Shown here: positions 2,959 to 64,000 of the stretch, one piece after another | How positions within the stretch are numbered: the first letter of the stretch is position 1 | Layout: each line of letters opens with the position of its first letter | Origin: a virus | Strand: one strand, 5' to 3' | IMG/VR virus record: IMGVR_UViG_3300032523_001366 | Location: 4,016 to 68,015 of that record | DNA: 64,000 bases | Notes under the pieces: generated by a model | Databases searched by the model: none | What the model saw: only the letters and a program-made list of their open reading frames with translations | Told to the model about the DNA's origin: nothing | Translations under genes and position numbers: made by a program

Positions 2959-3303
2959 GTGGAACTAGACATGCTATCTAAAGCTGAGGGGTTTACTACA
3001 AACCTAAGCCGTAGGTTTGTAGGGCAGGTAAAGCTCCTAAAGGGAAAAGTTATGTGGGAAGCAGCCAAGGTGCTTCCTATGTATGTTCTAAATAATGTAG
3101 AGGTAAAAAGATATTTCCGAGTGTTCTTTAAACTAACACTCGGAAGAGAGCACAGATGGCTAGACGAGTACACGATAGACAGTATGAATAACAGTCAGTT
3201 AGCGGCAATTGTTGGGCTGCAGTCTTTCTCCCTTGATGTAGGGGAAGAGACTTATGTAAAATTCTTTGGTGATTTTGATGAACAGGAGTTGGAGAATGAT
3301 TAA
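2959..3303 (+). CDS. hypothetical protein
   Basis: 114-aa ORF filling the operon gap; start uncertain. Confidence 0.5.
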   Translation: MELDMLSKAEGFTTNLSRRFVGQVKLLKGKVMWEAAKVLPMYVLNNVEVKRYFRVFFKLTLGREHRWLDEYTIDSMNNSQLAAIVGLQSFSLDVGEETYVKFFGDFDEQELEND

Positions 3304-4357
3304 TAAAGTTAATGCGGATGGCGTAGTGCACGAAGATACCGAGAACACAATAATTACGGGGGAATTCGACATGGCGGGATATATCAGTCGGTTGAAGGCG
3401 AAAGAAGTGGTAGCGGAGGAAGAAAGGGCCACGGAATCTAAAGAGGAGGACAGCTTCTCGTACCTTAACGGTACCTACGTTCCAGATGTAGATCCTTCCT
3501 ACGTCATGCCGCCAGATACGGCAAAGCTGTTTGAGGTTCTTAATCAGGGCCGCAAGGAGATGTCAGAGAATGTACTGCTCGTAGGTCCTACCGGTTGTGG
3601 TAAGACCGAGCTGGCGAAGCAATTTGCCGCAAGAGTAGGTCTTCCCCTCTTAAAGATGGATTGCAGCAATATCACTGAGGCTAGTCAGTGGTTTGGTAGG
3701 CTGGATATGAAGAACTCCTCGTTGGAGTATCTTGAGGCTCCATTCTCTCGAATCGTAGCTAGAGGGAATCATGTAATTCTCTTAGACGAGATCAATCGTG
3801 CTAGCTCCGAAGTGCTTAACTGTCTACTTCCATTGCTAGACACGACTAGGAGTACGTTCATTCAAGAACGTAAACCAAGTCCCATCCTTAGGGATGGCGG
3901 TGGTCTTATTTGGTTTGCGACTATGAATGAGGGGAGTCAATACACTGGCACTATGAGATTAGATCGCGCTCTGCGCGGTAGATTCTCAAATGTGGTAGAG
4001 TTAACTTATCTGAGCAAAGCAGATGAGATAGCATTGCTGGTAAGGCGTACAGGTATTGATGTAGAAAATGCCACCAAGTTGGTGGATATCGCTGATACCA
4101 TTCGCTTAAAGGCAAAGGGTATCAACAGCATCTATACGCATGTACTCTCTACACGAGAGTTGCTTAATGCAGCTAAGAAGTTCGTAAGAGGCGGTATTAA
4201 GACTTTGCGCTTTACTGTGCTTAATCACTTTGATGGTGGTAACGGCGTAGACTCAGAGCGAGGTCATGTCCTTAAGATGCTCGAAGGTAAGATGGGTAGT
4301 ATTAACGGCTTGGGAGACAAGCCAAAATCTGCAAGCGATATGATTGCAGGTTCCTAG
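3296..4357 (+). CDS. MoxR/CbbQ/CobS-like AAA+ ATPase
   Basis: Walker A GPTGCGKT, Walker B ILLDEINRA, sensor ATMN, arginine finger ALRGRF. Confidence 0.9.
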   Translation: MINKVNADGVVHEDTENTIITGEFDMAGYISRLKAKEVVAEEERATESKEEDSFSYLNGTYVPDVDPSYVMPPDTAKLFEVLNQGRKEMSENVLLVGPTGCGKTELAKQFAARVGLPLLKMDCSNITEASQWFGRLDMKNSSLEYLEAPFSRIVARGNHVILLDEINRASSEVLNCLLPLLDTTRSTFIQERKPSPILRDGGGLIWFATMNEGSQYTGTMRLDRALRGRFSNVVELTYLSKADEIALLVRRTGIDVENATKLVDIADTIRLKAKGINSIYTHVLSTRELLNAAKKFVRGGIKTLRFTVLNHFDGGNGVDSERGHVLKMLEGKMGSINGLGDKPKSASDMIAGS

Positions 4358-4416
4358 TTGTTTTAAAACGGTGGCAGGGCTAGCGCCTTGCCACTTTACT
4401 CTTGGAGGTAAATAAT

Positions 4417-6465
4417 ATGGCATTCAAAGACTGGTACGAAAACCCTAAGTATGAAGCCGGAACAGGCAAATCATACTGGGGGTCATGGTCTAAGTGGAGC
4501 TACTTAGACGCCCCACTTGACGACTATGATAAGAAAGACGGATCCCTTAAAAAGGATAAGGACTCAAATAAGAGGGCGTGTGAGGATGCCCTAAGGTCAG
4601 TTAGTAGATCTGCAAATGTGATTCTTAACTCAGGATCGCAGGAGAGGTCTCTGACCGTTAAGTTTTCCAATGGGGAAAATGTAAATACCCTAAAGGATGA
4701 CACGATATACCTATCCCCGGACGCTCTGCTAGATTGCGTCACGCGGGATGAGAAGGAAGACACTATAGATAGTATGAGCGGGCAGGCGATGTTATCTGCT
4801 CAGCTGAAGCGGCAGCTAGACCCTAATACCTACCAGGAGTTCCTGGCATCTAAGGACCGGGAAATAAGGTCTCTATGGAGCTCTATAGAGCTAGCCATCG
4901 CTAGAGGCGAGGTAATAGGTGACTGGGCAGGGTTTAAGCCGTACTTTGATATGTACGCAAAGACCAGCTCAAAAGTCACCAGCACGGTGATCAAGAGAGA
5001 GCTAAGCAAGCATAACGGAACTAGTGAGGATAAGCCCACTAGTGCTAAGGCGTTTGTTATGGGAGTGGCATGGAACCTGTACCATAGCCATGATCCTATA
5101 CGAATACCCCCCGCCTACAATGACGGTAAGATGCTGGTGGCTGCGGGCCTTAGAGGGGCAGAAAGCTGCAAAGAGCGATGGAACTTTTGCAGCTTGGTGG
5201 TGGCGGAGCTTCGTCGCATGTACGACACCGCTCCACCTCCTGGAAAAGGCCCAGGCGCGCCAGAAGGTAGTAGGCCTATGGACTTTGAGGAGTCCGCAGA
5301 AGGGGTGGACATGCTCGAGATGATTAAGAAGCTCGAGAAGATAAGAAAAGAAGAGGACCCTGCAACGCCAAAAAAGAGTGTGCCAAAGAGGGGCGCTGAT
5401 AAGTTCACTGGTGTGGACGAAGAGCTGTTTGGTGTGGATAAGATAGCTAATAAGAAGTGCAAGGAGGCTGGAGATATCGACGCGATAAGCGGAGATTCTA
5501 CTTCAGAGCTAAAGGACTCTGTAAGCGCCCCGTCTATTCCAGGGCCCGGAGGCTATAGAGGCCGGACCGTAAAGAGGGGTATTCCCTTCTGGCTCCCTAA
5601 GGACAAACCATCTAGGGAGAGCAAGAAGCACTTTGATAAAAGCAAGATAGCGGAGCTGAATAGAGTGGCTGAGGTTATTAAGGATAGCTTCGGTTTCACT
5701 GATAAGCTTGCTAAGCGAAAAATATACGGGCTTAAGTCCGGAGTAATCCGTCCTGAGGCGCTGTATAGACTGGAGCTGGGCTCTGATGAGGTATTCTACA
5801 AGACCACTTTGGTCGACGTAGATAAAGTATCAGTGTGTCTGCTAATAGACCAGTCAGGCAGTATGGGAAGCCACAGCCGCGGATCTGCTGCTGAAAAAGT
5901 AGTAGAGGCCGCGGAGGTAGCGTATGTACTTGCGCACCTATGCAAAGATCTGAAGCATATGGACCTGTCTGTTATAGGCTTCAGTGCCCAGGAAAGTTGT
6001 GATGAGGCTCGCCTCAAGCTTACTTCTGGATCGGACGCTGACGGCGAGGTAGATATGCGGCTCATCTATGACTCGATGGACCCTAGTAATAGCAACATCG
6101 AAGACATATGCCACATTCGGTCACACTCCAATAACCTAGACGGGTTTTCACTCTGGTATGCTGCTAAGCACATGTCGGAGACGAGAGCAGATAGGAAGCG
6201 TAAGGTACTTATAGTGGTGTCTGACGGATCCCCTAACGGTAGAGGATACGGCGGAGACGAGGCGGAGGCGCACGTAGCGTTATGTAAGAAAGATGTCAAA
6301 GCTCGCTTTGGCATTGATACATACGCCATTGGCATCTCTAACGCCTACACTCAACATGAGGGTGATAAGATGTACGGAGCTGGAAACAACATCATTATCG
6401 GTGATGTTAAATCTAGCGTAGGCTTTCTTTCCAGATTCCTTAATCAGGTTTCTCAGATAGCTTAG
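4417..6465 (+). CDS. vWA (MIDAS) domain protein, CobT-like partner of the AAA+ ATPase
   Basis: LLIDQSGSM MIDAS motif and IVVSDGSP in the C-terminal third; adjacent to MoxR-type ATPase; GGAGGT SD. Confidence 0.85.
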   Translation: MAFKDWYENPKYEAGTGKSYWGSWSKWSYLDAPLDDYDKKDGSLKKDKDSNKRACEDALRSVSRSANVILNSGSQERSLTVKFSNGENVNTLKDDTIYLSPDALLDCVTRDEKEDTIDSMSGQAMLSAQLKRQLDPNTYQEFLASKDREIRSLWSSIELAIARGEVIGDWAGFKPYFDMYAKTSSKVTSTVIKRELSKHNGTSEDKPTSAKAFVMGVAWNLYHSHDPIRIPPAYNDGKMLVAAGLRGAESCKERWNFCSLVVAELRRMYDTAPPPGKGPGAPEGSRPMDFEESAEGVDMLEMIKKLEKIRKEEDPATPKKSVPKRGADKFTGVDEELFGVDKIANKKCKEAGDIDAISGDSTSELKDSVSAPSIPGPGGYRGRTVKRGIPFWLPKDKPSRESKKHFDKSKIAELNRVAEVIKDSFGFTDKLAKRKIYGLKSGVIRPEALYRLELGSDEVFYKTTLVDVDKVSVCLLIDQSGSMGSHSRGSAAEKVVEAAEVAYVLAHLCKDLKHMDLSVIGFSAQESCDEARLKLTSGSDADGEVDMRLIYDSMDPSNSNIEDICHIRSHSNNLDGFSLWYAAKHMSETRADRKRKVLIVVSDGSPNGRGYGGDEAEAHVALCKKDVKARFGIDTYAIGISNAYTQHEGDKMYGAGNNIIIGDVKSSVGFLSRFLNQVSQIA

Positions 6466-59727: not shown

Positions 59728-60347
59728 TGAGGTACTGGAAAGCCAAGAGCATTACACCTGGGTCTAAAGTATGCATATCTGTAGTTACGTATAATCAAAC
59801 TAACTGCTTATCATCTCTCATACATGCCCTTAGAGCCCAAACATTTAAAGACTTCAAAGCATATATATTACATGATGGCCCTTGGTCTAATGAAGCCTCC
59901 ACCCATTACTTAAACGCAGTAGGCAGTGACCATAGATTCGTTAAGTTAAATAGTCCTACAAGAGAGGCTAAGTTCGGGCATCACCTTAGACAGGTAGGGT
60001 TTGATATGGGCACGGCTGACAAGTGCAACTGGCTATGCACTATGAACGCTGATTGCTGGTATGCTCCCGTTTATTTAGAGTGGATGCTAGGCTCAGCCCA
60101 TGAAAATAAATCCAACTTTATTTACTGTAACATGGTTCACAGCCACAAGTTATGGAAACCGATGAAGTCGGACCTCAAGAGAGGAGCTATAGACGCAGGC
60201 AACTGGATAGCTCATACTAGCCTTGTGGGCGATACTAAGTGGAATAGCAATAGCTTTTCAGCTGACTGGGAGTATGTTAATAAACTTAAAAATAAACCTG
60301 ACTTTAAGCCCTCTAAAGTTGATGGTTATATATTTACACACAACTGA
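59727..60347 (+). CDS. GT2-like glycosyltransferase
   Basis: ISVVTYN, ILHDG, MNAD, ADWE. Confidence 0.75.
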   Translation: MRYWKAKSITPGSKVCISVVTYNQTNCLSSLIHALRAQTFKDFKAYILHDGPWSNEASTHYLNAVGSDHRFVKLNSPTREAKFGHHLRQVGFDMGTADKCNWLCTMNADCWYAPVYLEWMLGSAHENKSNFIYCNMVHSHKLWKPMKSDLKRGAIDAGNWIAHTSLVGDTKWNSNSFSADWEYVNKLKNKPDFKPSKVDGYIFTHN

Positions 60348-60349
60348 AC

Positions 60350-61390
60350 ATGAAGATAGGCTTTGATGTACAGTATAAACCTCATGATGCCGTGTATGCG
60401 GCGTTAAGGTTGTCTGATTCGTTTAGGTTCTTAGGCTACGATACAACTCTATTCAGCAGTAAGGCCCCTAACCATATCTATGGGTGCAATTGGGATAACC
60501 TAGTAGTAACTCCTAATGACATGCCTTATGATAAGTGGTTAAAGGGGCTCAGCCATGTAGTGTGGCCAGTTCCTCCTAGTAAGGATGTAGTGCAAAGGGT
60601 TGGCAAATCAATAGTTACGATAGCTCTAGCTCCATGGGATTGTCTTCCTGGGTACATAAAGGGATCACTTAAGTTTTGTGCCCATGTAGTAACTCCTTGC
60701 TTAGAGAACTCAGCCATTGTTCGTAAAGAGTCTAATATTAGAGACGTCTCCACAATTGAATGGGACAGCTCTATACCTATGACTAGAAAGGACATAGGAG
60801 ACACAGATGCTTCAAGACCTAAGGTTCTAATACCACTTCACTCCAGCCAGGGGCTTAGATGTGACTTGGAGTCTTTATTTCAGATAATCTCCGGAGTTCA
60901 AGACAAGTGCCCTCAAGCCGATATAACTGTTTCATATAGCTCTAAAGGATCTCCATGGGAAGTGAAGAGAGCCCTAGCTAGGTATGTAAAAGGCAATCGA
61001 AACATAAAAATCGTCATAGACGAAACCACTTGTACTAGCTCCCTTCTTCTATATGGGCATAGCGATATAGTATTGTGGCCAGCAGAGATAGAGGGGTTTG
61101 GCTTAGTAGGAATAGAGTCTATATACATGGGAACACCAGTAGTGGCCTATGATATACCACCGATGTCAAATATAATTACAAATGGCGTTAACGGTATGTT
61201 GGTTTCGTGTGACTCGGGAGGCTCTAAGGGCGGAGTAATGTATGCTGAGCCTAATCCTTCTGAGTTTATAACTGTAGCAGCGAATGCCATAAACGAAAGA
61301 ATACTGGATCTTAATAAGAACACCAAAGTAGGCAGAAGATCAGTTAGAAGCATGTTTTACTCACAATGGAAGAAGATCATAGAGGGCTAA
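60350..61390 (+). CDS. GT4 (GT-B) glycosyltransferase
   Basis: EGFGLVGIESIYMGTPVVAYD EX7E motif; NGVNGMLV. Confidence 0.85.
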   Translation: MKIGFDVQYKPHDAVYAALRLSDSFRFLGYDTTLFSSKAPNHIYGCNWDNLVVTPNDMPYDKWLKGLSHVVWPVPPSKDVVQRVGKSIVTIALAPWDCLPGYIKGSLKFCAHVVTPCLENSAIVRKESNIRDVSTIEWDSSIPMTRKDIGDTDASRPKVLIPLHSSQGLRCDLESLFQIISGVQDKCPQADITVSYSSKGSPWEVKRALARYVKGNRNIKIVIDETTCTSSLLLYGHSDIVLWPAEIEGFGLVGIESIYMGTPVVAYDIPPMSNIITNGVNGMLVSCDSGGSKGGVMYAEPNPSEFITVAANAINERILDLNKNTKVGRRSVRSMFYSQWKKIIEG

Positions 61391-61393
61391 CTC

Positions 61394-61759
61394 ATGGACG
61401 TACTAGCTGTAAGACAAGAAGAGAAGCTATGGGGCCGCAACCATATCATTCATTTGGACAACTCCTTTCAGATATGCCACATACATATTCTCAAAGGCGG
61501 ATACTGCTCTAATCACTTTCACCAGCATAAGTGGAATCAATTCTATATAGTCTCAGGCAAGCTAATGATCAGCTGCTACAACTCAGATGGCACTATAAAG
61601 AGCAGCATCATGCTTAGACCTACCGAGTGCATTAAGATACCGCCTGGCTTGCACCATAAGTTTGAAGCTATAGAAGAGACTGAAGCTTTGGAGATCTATT
61701 GGTCTGAGCTATCTGAGCACGACATTGTGCGTACAGACATAGGCGGCATCAAGGCTTAA
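61394..61759 (+). CDS. cupin-fold protein (sugar isomerase-like)
   Basis: KLWG, SNHFHQHK, IPPGLHHKF. Confidence 0.75.
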   Translation: MDVLAVRQEEKLWGRNHIIHLDNSFQICHIHILKGGYCSNHFHQHKWNQFYIVSGKLMISCYNSDGTIKSSIMLRPTECIKIPPGLHHKFEAIEETEALEIYWSELSEHDIVRTDIGGIKA

Positions 61760-61783
61760 TTCAACCCATAAGTGCGTCATAAT
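61756..61783 (+). promoter_or_regulatory. cassette B promoter motif
   Basis: TTAATT...GCGTCATAAT. Confidence 0.7.
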
Positions 61784-61791
61784 AGTATGGA

Positions 61792-61873
61792 AGGATAGGT
61801 TTATCAGTCATCTAACAGGTGACGCCTAATCCTGTACGGGCAGGTATGCCCACTTTTACGAAAGGAAAATACC
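61792..61873 (+). promoter_or_regulatory. conserved structured 5' leader (copy 1)
   Basis: AGGATAGGT..GTCATCT-AAC-AGGTGAC-GCCTAATCCT plus GGGCA-GGTA-TGCCC. Confidence 0.65.
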
Positions 61874-62122
61874 ATGACCCAGAACGAATTCCACCCACAC
61901 ATGGCTAGAATGGCGGCAGCTCTCGAGCAAGCGAAGGCCCTAGACTTGGAGCAGCTTCACGAAGAAGCTGCCCAGGTCTTAAGGGCCTCGTTCTCAAAGA
62001 GCGGGCCCTGGATAGGAGGGGAGGTGCCAGAAGGCTACCTCGACCTTGTCGGTAAAATCATTCAGGAGGAACAACGCCAGCTTCGCCGTCACGCATTGCT
62101 TCGCTCTTACCTAGATTTCTAG
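61874..62122 (+). CDS. hypothetical protein (cassette B)
   Basis: 82 aa, AAGGA SD. Confidence 0.65.
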   Translation: MTQNEFHPHMARMAAALEQAKALDLEQLHEEAAQVLRASFSKSGPWIGGEVPEGYLDLVGKIIQEEQRQLRRHALLRSYLDF

Positions 62123-62131
62123 GTAAGGGCC

Positions 62132-62176
62132 AATCACATATGGGCTATGCCTAATATGTGATTTTTTTTTAGCTAT
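62132..62176 (+). terminator. terminator with AGCTAT tail
   Basis: AATCACATAT...ATATGTGATT stem, T9, AGCTAT. Confidence 0.8.
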
Positions 62177-62187
62177 TATACGCCCCC

Positions 62188-62215
62188 TTAATTCAGAGCA
62201 TAATCGTGTCATAAT
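62188..62215 (+). promoter_or_regulatory. cassette C promoter motif
   Basis: TTAATT...GTGTCATAAT (one mismatch to consensus). Confidence 0.65.
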
Positions 62216-62220
62216 ATAGT

Positions 62221-62726
62221 GATACCGCTTAGGTATTAAGAATGAAGGCCTTCAGCCCTGCCGATCTGACACGGCCGCTTGGAGGGATTCGACTTAATAC
62301 CTAGGTTACTCTGGTGTTCTATGGCAAGTGCCTATAGAACGGTCAGTAGGATATTAAGCCACACACCTAAGGCCCCACGGCCTAAGAACAGTGGGCGGTA
62401 ACCAACCGTAGGTAAGTGGGCGTGGATGAAAGTTCCACAAACGTCCAGTAACTACGGACGTAACACTAGCGGCACCTTAGTGAGGTGCGCGTCCTGAGTA
62501 GGACTATAAACTGCTTAGAGAACGCCACACTCTTAAAATATGTGGGACACCCGGTGAGAGCCGGGGAATAGGGTGGAAACCCCTTCTTCTTCTTTTAAGG
62601 TAACCCGCCTACCATAAATGGGGTATGGATGAAACTTCCATATATCTTCCTATACCCACGGGAGATATTCCTCGCACCTGGAGGGAGGGTGCCGTCCTGA
62701 GCAGGACGTTAAGCTGCTCTTTTTTT
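62221..62726 (+). ncRNA. ~500-nt structured non-coding RNA (cassette C)
   Basis: Own promoter motif and T-tract, no ORF in the track, 13-bp stem 62228-62240/62293-62305, two homologous domains with compensatory changes. Confidence 0.7.
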
Positions 62727-62741
62727 AGCTATCACTCCTCC

Positions 62742-62769
62742 TTAACCCGGCCTATAAGCGCGTCATAAT
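62742..62769 (+). promoter_or_regulatory. cassette D promoter motif
   Basis: TTAACC...GCGTCATAAT. Confidence 0.7.
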
Positions 62770-62777
62770 AGTATGAA

Positions 62778-62818
62778 AGGATAGGTTATCAGTCATCTAG
62801 CCGATGGCACCTAATCCT
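62778..62818 (+). promoter_or_regulatory. conserved structured 5' leader (copy 2)
   Basis: AGGATAGGT-TATCA-GTCATC-TAGCC-GATGGC-ACCTAATCCT. Confidence 0.65.
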
Positions 62819-62838
62819 CATTTAACACGGAGGTTACC

Positions 62839-63051
62839 ATGATAAACCCATCAACCCCTCTGGGGTTCGCCTGGATAGCCAGGCTCCGCCGAGGCGGAAA
62901 CCTGTTTGTCCTGACGGCAGGGCATAGCAACCGTAAGAAGGCTCACATAGCCCTTGTGGATGCTGCCAAAAGTATTGAGGGGGTTACCAATGACCGGTTA
63001 ACCGCCCTTATAGACAAGGGCTTGCTTAGCCTTGTCTATGTTGATTTATAA
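62839..63051 (+). CDS. hypothetical protein (cassette D)
   Basis: 70 aa, GGAGGT SD. Confidence 0.65.
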   Translation: MINPSTPLGFAWIARLRRGGNLFVLTAGHSNRKKAHIALVDAAKSIEGVTNDRLTALIDKGLLSLVYVDL

Positions 63052-63055
63052 AAGC

Positions 63056-63096
63056 ACACACCATGCCTTCGGGTATGGTGTGTTTTTTTTAGCTAT
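63056..63096 (+). terminator. terminator with AGCTAT tail
   Basis: ACACACCATGCC-TTCG-GGTATGGTGTGT, T-tract, AGCTAT. Confidence 0.85.
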
Positions 63097-63145
63097 CACA
63101 CATCCTATCTCATTATGTTAATTGAGCTTATAAACGCGTCATAAT
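63084..63145 (+). repeat. 62-bp terminator/promoter junction repeat (copy 1)
   Basis: Matches 63379-63440 with 3 mismatches. Confidence 0.9.
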
Positions 63146-63149
63146 GAGT

Positions 63150-63238
63150 TGTAAGGAGTAGTCTTTAGTCATCTATAGTGGATGGCACCTATTCCTACAT
63201 GGGCAGGTATGCCCCTTTTTTGACGAAAGGAAAATACC
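63150..63238 (+). promoter_or_regulatory. conserved structured 5' leader (copy 3)
   Basis: GTCATCTA-TAG-TGGATGGC-ACCTATTCCT; GGGCAGGTATGCCC and ACGAAAGGAAAATACCATG identical to copy 1. Confidence 0.65.
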
Positions 63239-63286
63239 ATGGCAGTAGGAAAAGGCGGAAGAAAAGGCGGAGGGGGAGGTTGTTGA
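63239..63286 (+). CDS. 15-aa peptide MAVGKGGRKGGGGGC (cassette E)
   Basis: Same SD/ATG context as the 82-aa gene at 61874. Confidence 0.55.
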   Translation: MAVGKGGRKGGGGGC

Positions 63287-63351
63287 CTCCTTTCCAGAGG
63301 CACTCACACTTGCAGTTGCAGGTGTGGGTGCGCCGGTGGGGTCTAACCATC

Positions 63352-63391
63352 CGTCCTGAGCAGGACGTTAAACTGCTCTTTTTTTAGCTAT
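63352..63391 (+). terminator. pseudoknot, T-tract, AGCTAT cassette end
   Basis: CGTCC-TGAGCA-GGACG-TTAAAC-TGCTC, T7, AGCTAT. Confidence 0.65.
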
Positions 63392-63440
63392 CACACATCC
63401 TATCTCATTACGTTAATTGGACTTATAAACGCGTCATAAT
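63379..63440 (+). repeat. 62-bp terminator/promoter junction repeat (copy 2)
   Basis: Matches 63084-63145; ends in GCGTCATAAT. Confidence 0.9.
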
Positions 63441-63516
63441 CTATTGGTTACCCGTACCTGTAAAAACGGGGGCTGGTCAGAGAGCTATTCTTTGACGATG
63501 TTAAGCGGGAGATAGG

Positions 63517-64000
63517 ATGTTTACTCTAGTTAGAGTTAAAGGAAGTTTTATAGAGGCCTCCACTGGCCATACCGTAAATGTCTCGGAGTTTGCTATCTCA
63601 CCAAAGGTCACTGTAAAGATGTGGTATATGTTCGGAATGAACAGAACTGTATCTGGACAGTGGTGGTCTTCTCAGACTATCCCTTGGAACGCAAACCATG
63701 ACGACCCTATAACCAGCGTGTCTTGGTACGACTGCCAAGAATTCATTAGCAGGCTAAACAAGAGTAGGCCAGGTAAGTCAGCTTTTAGGCTACCGACTCA
63801 GGCTGAGGTTGAACTTGCCAGTGCAAAAAATGTGTTGGAGGAGGCCCCGACACTGGGCGCTAGAGGCGAGTGGTGTCAAGATTATAGCTATGACGGGTAC
63901 TATAGATACTGCTACAGCTGCTGGAACGGTAAGAGCTGGTCTTACCAAAATAGTTTAAACTTCACTGGAGGTATACTAGGTTTAGAGAGCTTTGAGTTAA
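63517..64000 (+). CDS. FGE-sulfatase (C-type lectin-fold) domain protein, runs off the window
   Basis: My translation: PITSVSWYDCQEFISRLN...FRLPTQAEVE...EWCQD; GGGAG SD; missing from the track because no stop lies in the window. Confidence 0.75.
   Translation, partial: MFTLVRVKGSFIEASTGHTVNVSEFAISPKVTVKMWYMFGMNRTVSGQWWSSQTIPWNANHDDPITSVSWYDCQEFISRLNKSRPGKSAFRLPTQAEVELASAKNVLEEAPTLGARGEWCQDYSYDGYYRYCYSCWNGKSWSYQNSLNFTGGILGLESFEL

Follow-up and report, generated by a model that had tools for sequence, protein, structure and literature searches.

What is encoded at positions 62221-62726 of an uncultured phage genome, in an array of small cassettes near the end of a viral record, if it is not a protein? 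The locus lies in the 64-kb window analysed here (the whole stretch of DNA, which forms the final part of the 68-kb IMG/VR record IMGVR_UViG_3300032523_001366, with an estimated completeness of ~33%). We conclude that it is very probably a stand-alone gene for a structured phage RNA of ~500 nucleotides (nt), probably expressed, that belongs to an uncatalogued, modular family. The observations behind this are borders marked by sequence motifs, homology between two domains, helices delineated by covariation, presence in RNA libraries and no match to a catalogued family. The full explanation, in which the RNA gene and its module structure are joined to a mechanism as a protein decoy or scaffold, has in our judgement somewhat less than an even chance of being correct as a whole.

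Nearly all genes of the window are carried on the + strand, and they include those for a family A DNA polymerase, helicases, a UvsX-like recombinase and a terminase. The region is present in DNA and RNA runs of freshwater, lake and drinking-water samples from 17 studies; among GenBank phage isolates, there is no DNA match to window positions 61700-63500. Searching with the glycosyltransferase encoded upstream identified 8 related viral loci (L003-L010), to which loci from metagenomes are added below. Each small cassette opens with a promoter-like motif and closes with a hairpin and T-run followed by AGCTATCA. Terminator joined to promoter is the unit repeated between these variable cassettes, a layout that resembles the PeSL composite promoter-terminator elements of T4-type phages, and recombination may well take place at such borders.

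The initial annotation gave the RNA its own promoter motif and T-tract. Both are located where it placed them, and both recur far above expectation. The motif GYGTCATAAT (full form TTAAT..ATAA..GYGTCATAAT) has 6 matches in the window versus 0.22 expected, and 11 aligned cassette starts have an invariant TTAA..ATAA..G.GTCATAAT. A second promoter-like call, TTCAGA-17-TATAGT, overlaps the first at 62192-62220. The T-tract followed by TTTTTTAGCTATYA has 7 matches (≤ 1 mismatch) versus 0.11 expected. It follows directly on a GC-containing hairpin, as is typical of intrinsic terminators; a simple terminator scan (loops of 3-8 nt) missed this hairpin at 62699-62719, presumably due to its 9-nt loop. 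Given that a terminator and a fresh promoter stand between the RNA and the next gene, the RNA is not a leader.

The terminator itself is not peculiar to this gene. The element GTCCT-GAGCAG-GAC-GTTAAA-CTGCTC with T7 ends many cassettes of these phages, including protein-coding ones, and with its T-run it has 19 copies across the 12 sequences searched, 11 of which are identical. Copies inside the RNAs have no T-run and an altered sequence, with the pairing retained (e.g., ATGCAT with CTGCAG, TAGTAA with CTGCTA and, in a shifted register, GAGCC with GGCTC). Thus, the putative 3' pseudoknot that was first described as a part of each domain is present, but it is a generic element that also closes many protein-coding cassettes. 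We conclude that the RNA's 3' pseudoknot is the phage's standard terminator, reused as an internal building block.

No ORF (open reading frame) of 60 or more amino acids (aa) had been noted here, and indeed the longest that overlap 62221-62726 are of 47, 40 and 33 aa. Folded as RNA, the strand reaches -195.9 kcal/mol, compared to -158.5 ± 5.8 kcal/mol in shuffles (z -6.41; 0 of 100 are as stable). Its parts have z-scores of -4.61 (5' domain), -3.01, -1.04 (linker) and -2.17. Three parts on the - strand score -2.34, -1.72 and -1.12, and the + strand is the more structured in each part compared.

The RNA contains two copies of one domain. Domains 1 and 2 are identical at 84 of 126 aligned bases, with an alignment score of 101 versus 38.7 ± 5.4 (maximum 60) in 500 dinucleotide shuffles (z 11.5). 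They share order and spacing as the initial annotation proposed, the distance from GGTAACC to the 3' pseudoknot being 94 nt in domain 1 (62397 to 62491) and 95 nt in domain 2 (62599 to 62694). The stems it named are complementary (GTGGA/TCCAC versus ATGGA/TCCAT; ACGTCC/GGACGT versus ATATCTTCC/GGGAGATAT; GCACCT/AGGTGC), and the covariation that it suspected is seen in homologs. Two of its outlines need redrawing. Domain 1 is as described, but the conserved part begins ~30 nt further upstream, at 62367. The 13-bp stem of the 5' part is present (62228-62240/62293-62305), but the stretch it encloses is predicted to fold as one irregular hairpin and not as a multibranch domain. The closest relative, the metagenomic locus L022, keeps this stem with two pairs altered, one G-C replaced by A-U on both sides and one U.G by C-G. 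The 3'-side letter of the double change (C to T at 62300) also occurs in all four RNA-library contigs described below. The first bases of the 5' domain are conserved in 7 of 7 RNA cassettes, and the remainder varies by lineage. The lead-in to domain 1 is 89% identical to L010 over 73 nt and 93% identical to L007 over 75 nt, while the glycosyltransferase protein of L007 is just 61% identical. In other copies, by reading, the equivalent of helix P0 changes from CCCA/TGGG to CCCG/CGGG.

Does the RNA belong to a family that is already catalogued? Rfam 15 gave 0 matches in the whole window at gathering thresholds. With E up to 10 over 61700-63520 there were two weak matches, of which EGFOA-assoc-1 (RF02970) alone overlaps the RNA, at 14.7 bits versus a gathering score of 224.5 (E 0.33). 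Neither recurs in six homologous loci. We treat the EGFOA-assoc-1 match as chance and dropped it because it is absent among the 11 weak matches in L003, L007, L010, L022, L035 and L036. The models of GOLLD and ROOL did not match even at E up to 10, nor did the ribozyme families at gathering thresholds or at E up to 10, and ARAGORN detected 0 genes for transfer RNA (tRNA) or transfer-messenger RNA (tmRNA) in the window. Targeted literature searches found no description of this RNA; a 2023 catalogue drawn from the same collection of viruses (PMC10690425) counts 8,495 candidate structured RNAs, 29-151 nt in length, and a sub-element may be among them. The family is absent from Rfam 15 and is in this sense uncatalogued, and the initial description of a functional RNA without an assignable family is supported.

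A link to Ro and Y-RNA was considered via the vWA protein encoded at 4402-6465 and rejected, as that protein matches only CobT_C and VWA and has no TROVE domain. No Ro-type (TROVE) protein was found among 10 large ORFs scanned in this ~33% complete record. The gene for this CobT-like vWA protein adjoins one for a MoxR-type AAA ATPase (3266-6465 for the pair).

A full module of the family has four parts. The first is a small hairpin (P1) followed by an A-rich linker; the hairpin loop, A-C-C-N, pairs with an N'-G-G of that linker, which makes an H-type pseudoknot (pk1). Directly after it comes a 5-bp hairpin with a 7-nt loop, the shape of a tRNA T-arm (P2). Hairpins P3 and P4, whose loops are mutually complementary, make up the third part. 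The fourth is the small, putative 3' pseudoknot, with G-T-C...G-A-C (helix S1), an A-rich loop and a strand that pairs with the hairpin loop (helix S2). A covariance model (R1; 132 positions, 29 pairs) was built from 10 full domain copies. Full domains score 102-135 bits with it, partial modules 33-54 bits, and a hairpin or terminator alone < 31 bits. The features of the window RNA are listed in Table 1.

Table 1. Coordinates of the RNA gene at 62221-62726, its borders and its structural elements, in window positions.
Feature	Position	Strand	Remarks
Promoter-like motif TTAATT-16 nt-CATAAT	62188-62215	+	Common to neighbouring cassettes and to the RNA cassettes of relatives
5' domain	62221-62366	+	Conserved start GATACCG..TAGGTAT; long irregular hairpin closed by 13-bp stem; hypervariable second arm
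Lead-in to domain 1, candidate helix P0 (CCCAC...GTGGG)	62367-62396	+	Conserved in L007 and L010
Domain 1 (type 1)	62394-62522	+	R1 113.8 bits
Domain 1, P1	62396-62399/62405-62408	+	
Domain 1, pk1	62402-62404 with 62417-62419	+	Loop CCA with TGG
Domain 1, P2	62422-62438	+	T-arm-like hairpin; loop 62427-62433
Domain 1, P3	62441-62446/62456-62461	+	
Domain 1, P4	62472-62477/62483-62488	+	
Domain 1, 3' pseudoknot	62491-62516	+	No T-run behind
Linker	62517-62595	+	Three small hairpins and a pyrimidine-rich run; z -1.04; no informative variation in relatives
Domain 2 (type 2)	62596-62726	+	R1 132.5 bits
Domain 2, P1	62598-62601/62607-62610	+	
Domain 2, pk1	62604-62606 with 62620-62622	+	Loop CCC with GGG
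Domain 2, P2	62625-62641	+	
Domain 2, P3	62643-62650/62660-62667	+	
Domain 2, P4	62674-62679/62687-62692	+	
Domain 2, 3' pseudoknot	62694-62719	+	Is the terminator hairpin; T-run at 62720-62726
T-run	62720-62726	+	T7 directly after 6-bp helix 62699-62704/62714-62719
Conserved tail TTTTTTAGCTATCA	62721-62734	+	Terminator-to-next-promoter joint; repeat families D1, D4, D5

Of 282 cells in the R1 alignment of the 10 full domains, 96.8% hold a standard pair, and both partners vary in 12 of the 29 pairs. Covariation scores 0.339, compared to 0.159 ± 0.018 in shuffles (0 of 500 reach 0.339), and sliding the 3' partners by 1-3 columns reduces pairing to 35-47%. The most informative helix is P3, with 7 of its 8 pairs changed on both sides. 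RNAalifold, run with no supplied structure, predicts pk1, P2, P3 and the terminator helix. For the core (P1, pk1 and P2) the sample extends to 14 copies, including short forms and L021 and leaving out the two core modules of L035; 98.8% of cells are paired here, versus 34-48% when slid. The third pair of pk1 (11-27) is CG in 6 copies, AU in 4, GC in 3 and UA in 1, and is unpaired in none, while the remaining two pairs are invariant C-G; P1 has double changes in 3 of its 4 pairs. With covariation in both of its helices, pk1 is a well-founded H-type pseudoknot.

The two modules of a single RNA carry different pk1 pairs. The window RNA combines CCA:TGG with CCC:GGG, L007 CCG:CGG with CCA:TGG, and L021 CCT:AGG with CCC:GGG. 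Because the pairings used within one RNA differ and are mutually orthogonal, each module can fold alone. P4 is paired in 58 of 60 cells and hardly varies. Three proposed pairs link the P3 and P4 loops, and their bases are complementary in 29 of 30 cells, versus 11-17 of 30 in slid controls (-1, +1 to +3), 12 of 26 at -2 and 12 of 20 at -3 (P4 and the loop pairs were counted after one gap in the alignment was moved for a common register). In type 1 domains the loops read A-C-T with A-G-T and in type 2 domains C-C-C with G-G-G, such that two pairs are double-changed between types.

How widespread are these modules? The core module is present in the window and in 7 other distinct phage contigs, 8 in all, with the 10 distinct full domains by R1. 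L003, L007 and L010 each have a cassette without ORFs in slot one or two behind a highly conserved cupin gene, and its promoter and first bases (GATACCG..TAGGTAT) are as in the window. The slot behind the cupin gene is occupied by a protein-coding cassette in L004, L006 and L008; L005 has a terminator match alone, and the promoter and cassettes of L009 differ. The 21-nt pattern of the T-arm-like hairpin, searched in the viral collection, was found only in L003, L007 and L010. In metagenomes it matched 26 loci, 7 of which were confirmed by nhmmer (L021, L022, L028, L029, L035, L036 and L044). L022, near-identical to L029 with L044, has two RNA cassettes ~4.5 kb apart, and one of these is a close variant of the window RNA with a 70-nt insertion. 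L036 has an L003-like domain behind a different 5' part, and in L035 a string of modules directly follows an ORF. Module order and number differ among relatives, and in some the modules also occur alone.

Other candidates were rejected or are recorded here for completeness. All pattern matches share the hairpin by construction. In the 18 remaining metagenome loci, R1 matched at most the hairpin part; L001, found in viral contigs with a first, different DNA pattern, is a chance match inside an ORF of a GC-rich phage. The pattern search of bacterial and archaeal genomes revealed no host or prophage; its nine strict-pattern loci were not confirmed by nhmmer and match R1 in the hairpin part only (14.7-24.3 bits). 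The unrelated contig L034, the last of the 26, has an ORF-less stretch between two terminators (~1080-830, - strand), with a T-arm-like hairpin and no ACC-loop hairpin (R1 30 bits). Short-form modules end in a plain terminator in L007 (3790-3825), L010 (8190-8225) and L022 (860-830, - strand). The loop of this terminator contains GTTAAAC, a heptamer that the pseudoknot terminator has in its A-rich loop. Cassettes at 8262-8530 of L010 and 8140-8310 of L009 have a promoter and terminator and no evident ORF, and they may be other RNA genes. By reading, a further non-coding module (GAAAAGGACAG..TGGC.CCAAC...GGCCCGGA) is common to L036 (~2470-2400, - strand) and L021 (~1600-1545, - strand). Its appearance in two otherwise different RNAs suggests that the vocabulary of shuffled RNA modules may be wider.

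Is the RNA made? Six metatranscriptome runs contain 0.40-0.42 of the sampled words; the share of 0.00 in runs X21-X24 carries no information. All 4 of the lake metatranscriptome runs mapped (four studies, against window positions 60000-64000) yielded one contig each, of 527-545 nt. These contigs start at 62236, 62244 or 62261, end at 62671-62676 and carry the L022-type insertion. They bridge the RNA from the 5' domain, via domain 1 and the linker, into domain 2, most of which is included. Positions 62221-62235 and 62677-62726 are uncovered, as are most flanking bins in three runs, a pattern of coverage that is no evidence on transcript ends or on silence of the neighbours. Word depth is 17-155 for the RNA contig and 2-19 for flank contigs, depths that cannot rank genes. 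We take the contigs as a good hint of expression, not as proof.

Several features point to tRNA. The P2 hairpin has loop positions 1-5 of T-G-(A/C)-(A/G)-A in 16 of 16 copies inspected, the variants being TGAAAGT, TGAAACT, TGAGACT and TGCAACT. T-loops are closed by a helix and start with the consensus U-(G/U)-N-R-A, and the P2 loops vary only at positions that this consensus permits. The resemblance to T-loops that was first annotated holds at the sequence level, and P2 may adopt T-loop geometry. In the T-loop of tRNA itself, position 2 is a U that becomes pseudouridine. When the hairpin pattern was relaxed at two loop positions, 3 new viral loci were found, 2 of which are T-arms of phage tRNA-His genes. 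The phage tRNA-His loci (L065 634-708; L067 1440-1514 and 734-1123) have an unusual T-loop start, T-G-C instead of T-T-C, and a tmRNA gene adjoins one of them. L021 has two core modules behind a related promoter motif, in a ~790 nt ORF-poor stretch between tRNA-Thr and tRNA-Lys. In the L021 island as a whole (124-581, 1034-2333), ARAGORN identifies four tRNA genes, two of them for tRNA-Arg, and there are also a fifth tRNA-like Rfam match at 1232-1311 and a group I intron (81.8 bits).

What might such an RNA do? Tentatively, we suggest a decoy or scaffold: a stable, multivalent molecule that would act in trans through its fold, with T-arm-like hairpins and pseudoknots offering binding surfaces to a protein whose usual ligands are tRNA or other structured RNA. 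This protein could come from the host, as an enzyme of RNA processing or a nuclease of its defence, or it could be a phage factor by which pseudoknot terminators are recognised. Action by shape is suggested by repeated, orthogonal modules that fold independently and carry T-arm-like hairpins, by the second use of an element for which a recognition factor must already exist at terminators, and by the accessory status of the RNA in a hypervariable, early-gene-like region together with its presence in the RNA libraries of four studies. In a bolder and rather unlikely version, the RNA would be the founding member of a class of phage RNAs built from combinatorial, self-folding modules that are shuffled like protein-domain cassettes, and would serve as a multivalent mimic of the tRNA elbow that neutralises tRNA-directed host defence or captures tRNA-processing machinery. 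The small module vocabulary of such a class would have three items: T-arm mimics joined to a pseudoknot, pairs of kissing hairpins, and terminators in pseudoknot form.

A number of points weigh against the decoy proposal or the structure on which it builds. Neither a partner protein nor a host was identified, and the lineage is uncultured, given that the best matches of its DNA polymerase among isolated phages are just 21-26% identical. The Rfam models for tRNA, tmRNA and Y-RNA (YrlA) have no match on the RNA, and 0 of the 27 chance loci of the strict hairpin pattern is a tRNA. A relative at ~92% estimated completeness has no domain at all, from which it follows that the RNA is accessory. The internal pseudoknot copies could be recombination scars at terminators. 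RNA-library contigs can neither prove transcription nor give true ends or rank genes. The alignment is shallow (8 lineages, several rows near-identical), and independent events are few because many double changes separate only the two domain types; the structure was derived from the same sequences, so the slid control favours it. Helix S2 of the 3' pseudoknot varies and stays paired, while S1 is invariant in 10 of 10 rows, so covariation cannot separate this pseudoknot from a plain hairpin (by reading, three copies in L035 have T-A instead of C-G as the fourth S1 pair). Contact between the P3 and P4 loops as kissing hairpins is plausible and is rated no higher because the pairs reflect essentially one evolutionary change and because an extra P3-P4 unit in L035, by reading, has a mismatch in the proposed loop-loop pairing.

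Could the RNA be a structural material rather than a decoy? A self-assembling architectural RNA, forming a homo-oligomeric particle or scaffold via intermolecular loop-loop and pseudoknot contacts as in GOLLD or ROOL, is improbable. The RNA is large (~0.5 kb), ornate, phage-borne and from lakes, and its complementary loop pairs could in principle join molecules. GOLLD and ROOL occur in a tRNA context, as do the modules in the tRNA island of L021. Natural large RNAs of this kind form multimers, according to the accessible parts of two preprints (bioRxiv 10.1101/2024.12.08.627333; 10.64898/2026.07.01.735769), the latter of which describes EGFOA oligomers. However, neither the GOLLD nor the ROOL model matches, and the differing matched pairs of each module fit folding within modules better than symmetric intermolecular contacts.

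We likewise consider it improbable that the transcript is a precursor of several small stable RNAs, cut between modules (e.g., by tRNA-processing enzymes at the T-arm-like hairpins) into pieces protected by their 3' pseudoknots. Such a pseudoknot closes every full module, modules occur alone or reordered in relatives, and those of L021 lie within a tRNA operon, which is itself necessarily processed. Yet in all four studies the RNA-library contigs extend across the linker from one domain to the other, and so unprocessed RNA exists, and no processing site was identified.

A role as a base-pairing regulator of host or phage transcripts, either a small RNA (sRNA) or a sponge, is quite unlikely. 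An independent, probably abundant small cassette with a terminator is what many sRNAs look like, but conservation is in paired helices and loop-loop partners rather than in a single-stranded seed. Moreover, complementarity to the phage's own + strand is at chance (one 12-mer versus 1.6 expected), and no antisense relation of the RNA to transcripts of the phage itself is apparent.

It is also doubtful, to a high degree, that the locus is a functionless by-product, a chain of leftover terminators and untranslated leaders formed by recombination at terminator-promoter repeats. The array is hypervariable and bounded by repeated terminator-promoter composites that are PeSL-like, as far as the accessible parts of the sources describe these (PMC2839356, PMC4122927), the slot behind the cupin gene holds a protein-coding cassette in up to 5 of the 8 related viral loci, and the 3' pseudoknot is an ordinary terminator. 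Against this, compensatory changes maintain helices that are not part of any terminator (P1, pk1, P3 and the 13-bp stem), and internal pseudoknots with no T-run still pair despite changed sequence. Also, the 75-nt non-coding piece shared with L007 exceeds the glycosyltransferase protein in identity, and the core modules persist in the different context of L021.

Type III toxin-antitoxin systems have antitoxins made of repeats that form pseudoknots. The small pseudoknot recalls them in that a single RNA can hold several copies of it (2 in the window RNA and as many as 4 in L007), and its units might neutralise an endoribonuclease, as an antitoxin-like RNA or a decoy for such a toxin. This is very improbable. 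The units are not tandem and identical, with spacings of 46-211 nt and differing sequences in relatives, and no tandem repeat family was found in the window. No toxin-sized ORF adjoins the RNA (the neighbours are of 82 and 70 aa and had no defence-library scan), and the same element ends ordinary genes. A self-cleaving or other ribozyme, for which the complex, pseudoknot-rich fold might speak, is more improbable still: no ribozyme family matched, and RNA-library contigs cross domain 1, where no cleavage is seen. Finally, a gene for one or more small proteins is scarcely credible, given that of the 40- and 47-aa ORFs on the + strand the former is not retained in L022, the latter reads through the terminator and (by reading) is frame-shifted by a 1-nt insertion in L003 and L036, and the stem changes are compensatory rather than synonymous.

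Neighbouring cassettes have conserved non-coding parts of their own. The protein-coding cassettes have a common leader of ~70-90 nt (at 61785-61873, 62771-62838 and 63147-63239; ..GGATAGGTTATCAGTCATCTA..CCTAATCCT..; repeat families D3, D7 and D8). Its ends are complementary and it may be a structured, cis-regulatory 5' untranslated region. The same leader precedes cassette 63240-63387, where the sole ORF (63240-63287) has 15 codons, is Gly/Lys-rich and is followed by ~65 nt of GC-rich sequence and then the pseudoknot terminator; the 3' part of this cassette scores 26.8 bits with R1. A second conserved leader type (GGTTACCCGTACCTGTAAAAACGGGG...) is found at 63441-63516 of the window and opens other cassettes in several relatives (L004 ~8000, L006 ~8680, L007 ~3970 and L008 ~7990).

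Large structured RNAs without an assigned function are rare, and they have repeatedly been a source of new biology. For a computational find, the starting evidence is strong: defined borders, a pseudoknot pair that occurs in all four Watson-Crick forms, and presence in the RNA libraries of four lake studies. The modular design is one in which tandem copies hold mutually exclusive pairings. The locus indicates that hypervariable small-gene regions of phages can hold RNA genes as accessory cargo, and that a phage terminator can serve again as a structural building block. Should the T-arm-like modules mimic tRNA, the family would tie in with how phages counter tRNA-directed defences. With sizes of ~50 and ~130 nt, the modules are suited to structure determination.

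So, what does this RNA resemble? Four hairpins of domain 1 align with positions 128-234 of the EGFOA-assoc-1 model (RF02970), but the score is far below the gathering score and the six homologous loci do not match. ToxI-type (type III) antitoxins share with it a small pseudoknot unit repeated in one phage-related RNA; unlike theirs, the window units are neither tandem nor identical, have no adjacent toxin gene and double as terminators. With PeSLs, as described in the accessible parts of PMC2839356 and PMC4122927, it shares a terminator stem-loop and promoter repeated between the small cassettes of a hypervariable region, and in both cases cassette content differs between close relatives. However, PeSLs are the borders of cassettes, whereas here one cassette is an RNA gene and the terminator is reused inside it with no T-run. 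The likeness to the tRNA T-arm, tRNA-like structures and YrlA lies in P2 (5-bp stem and 7-nt loop, the first loop base being U and the fifth A), in the relaxed pattern that matches tRNA-His T-arms, and in the L021 modules within a tRNA operon. The window RNA differs from them in having no acceptor, D or anticodon arms and a G at position 2 of the P2 loop. GOLLD and ROOL offer a parallel in being several hundred nt long, rich in helices and pseudoknots, phage-carried, found in lake samples and of unknown function when discovered, and one relative (L021) has its modules among tRNA genes. The window RNA departs from both in that it matches neither Rfam model and is composed of tandem, orthogonal copies of one module.

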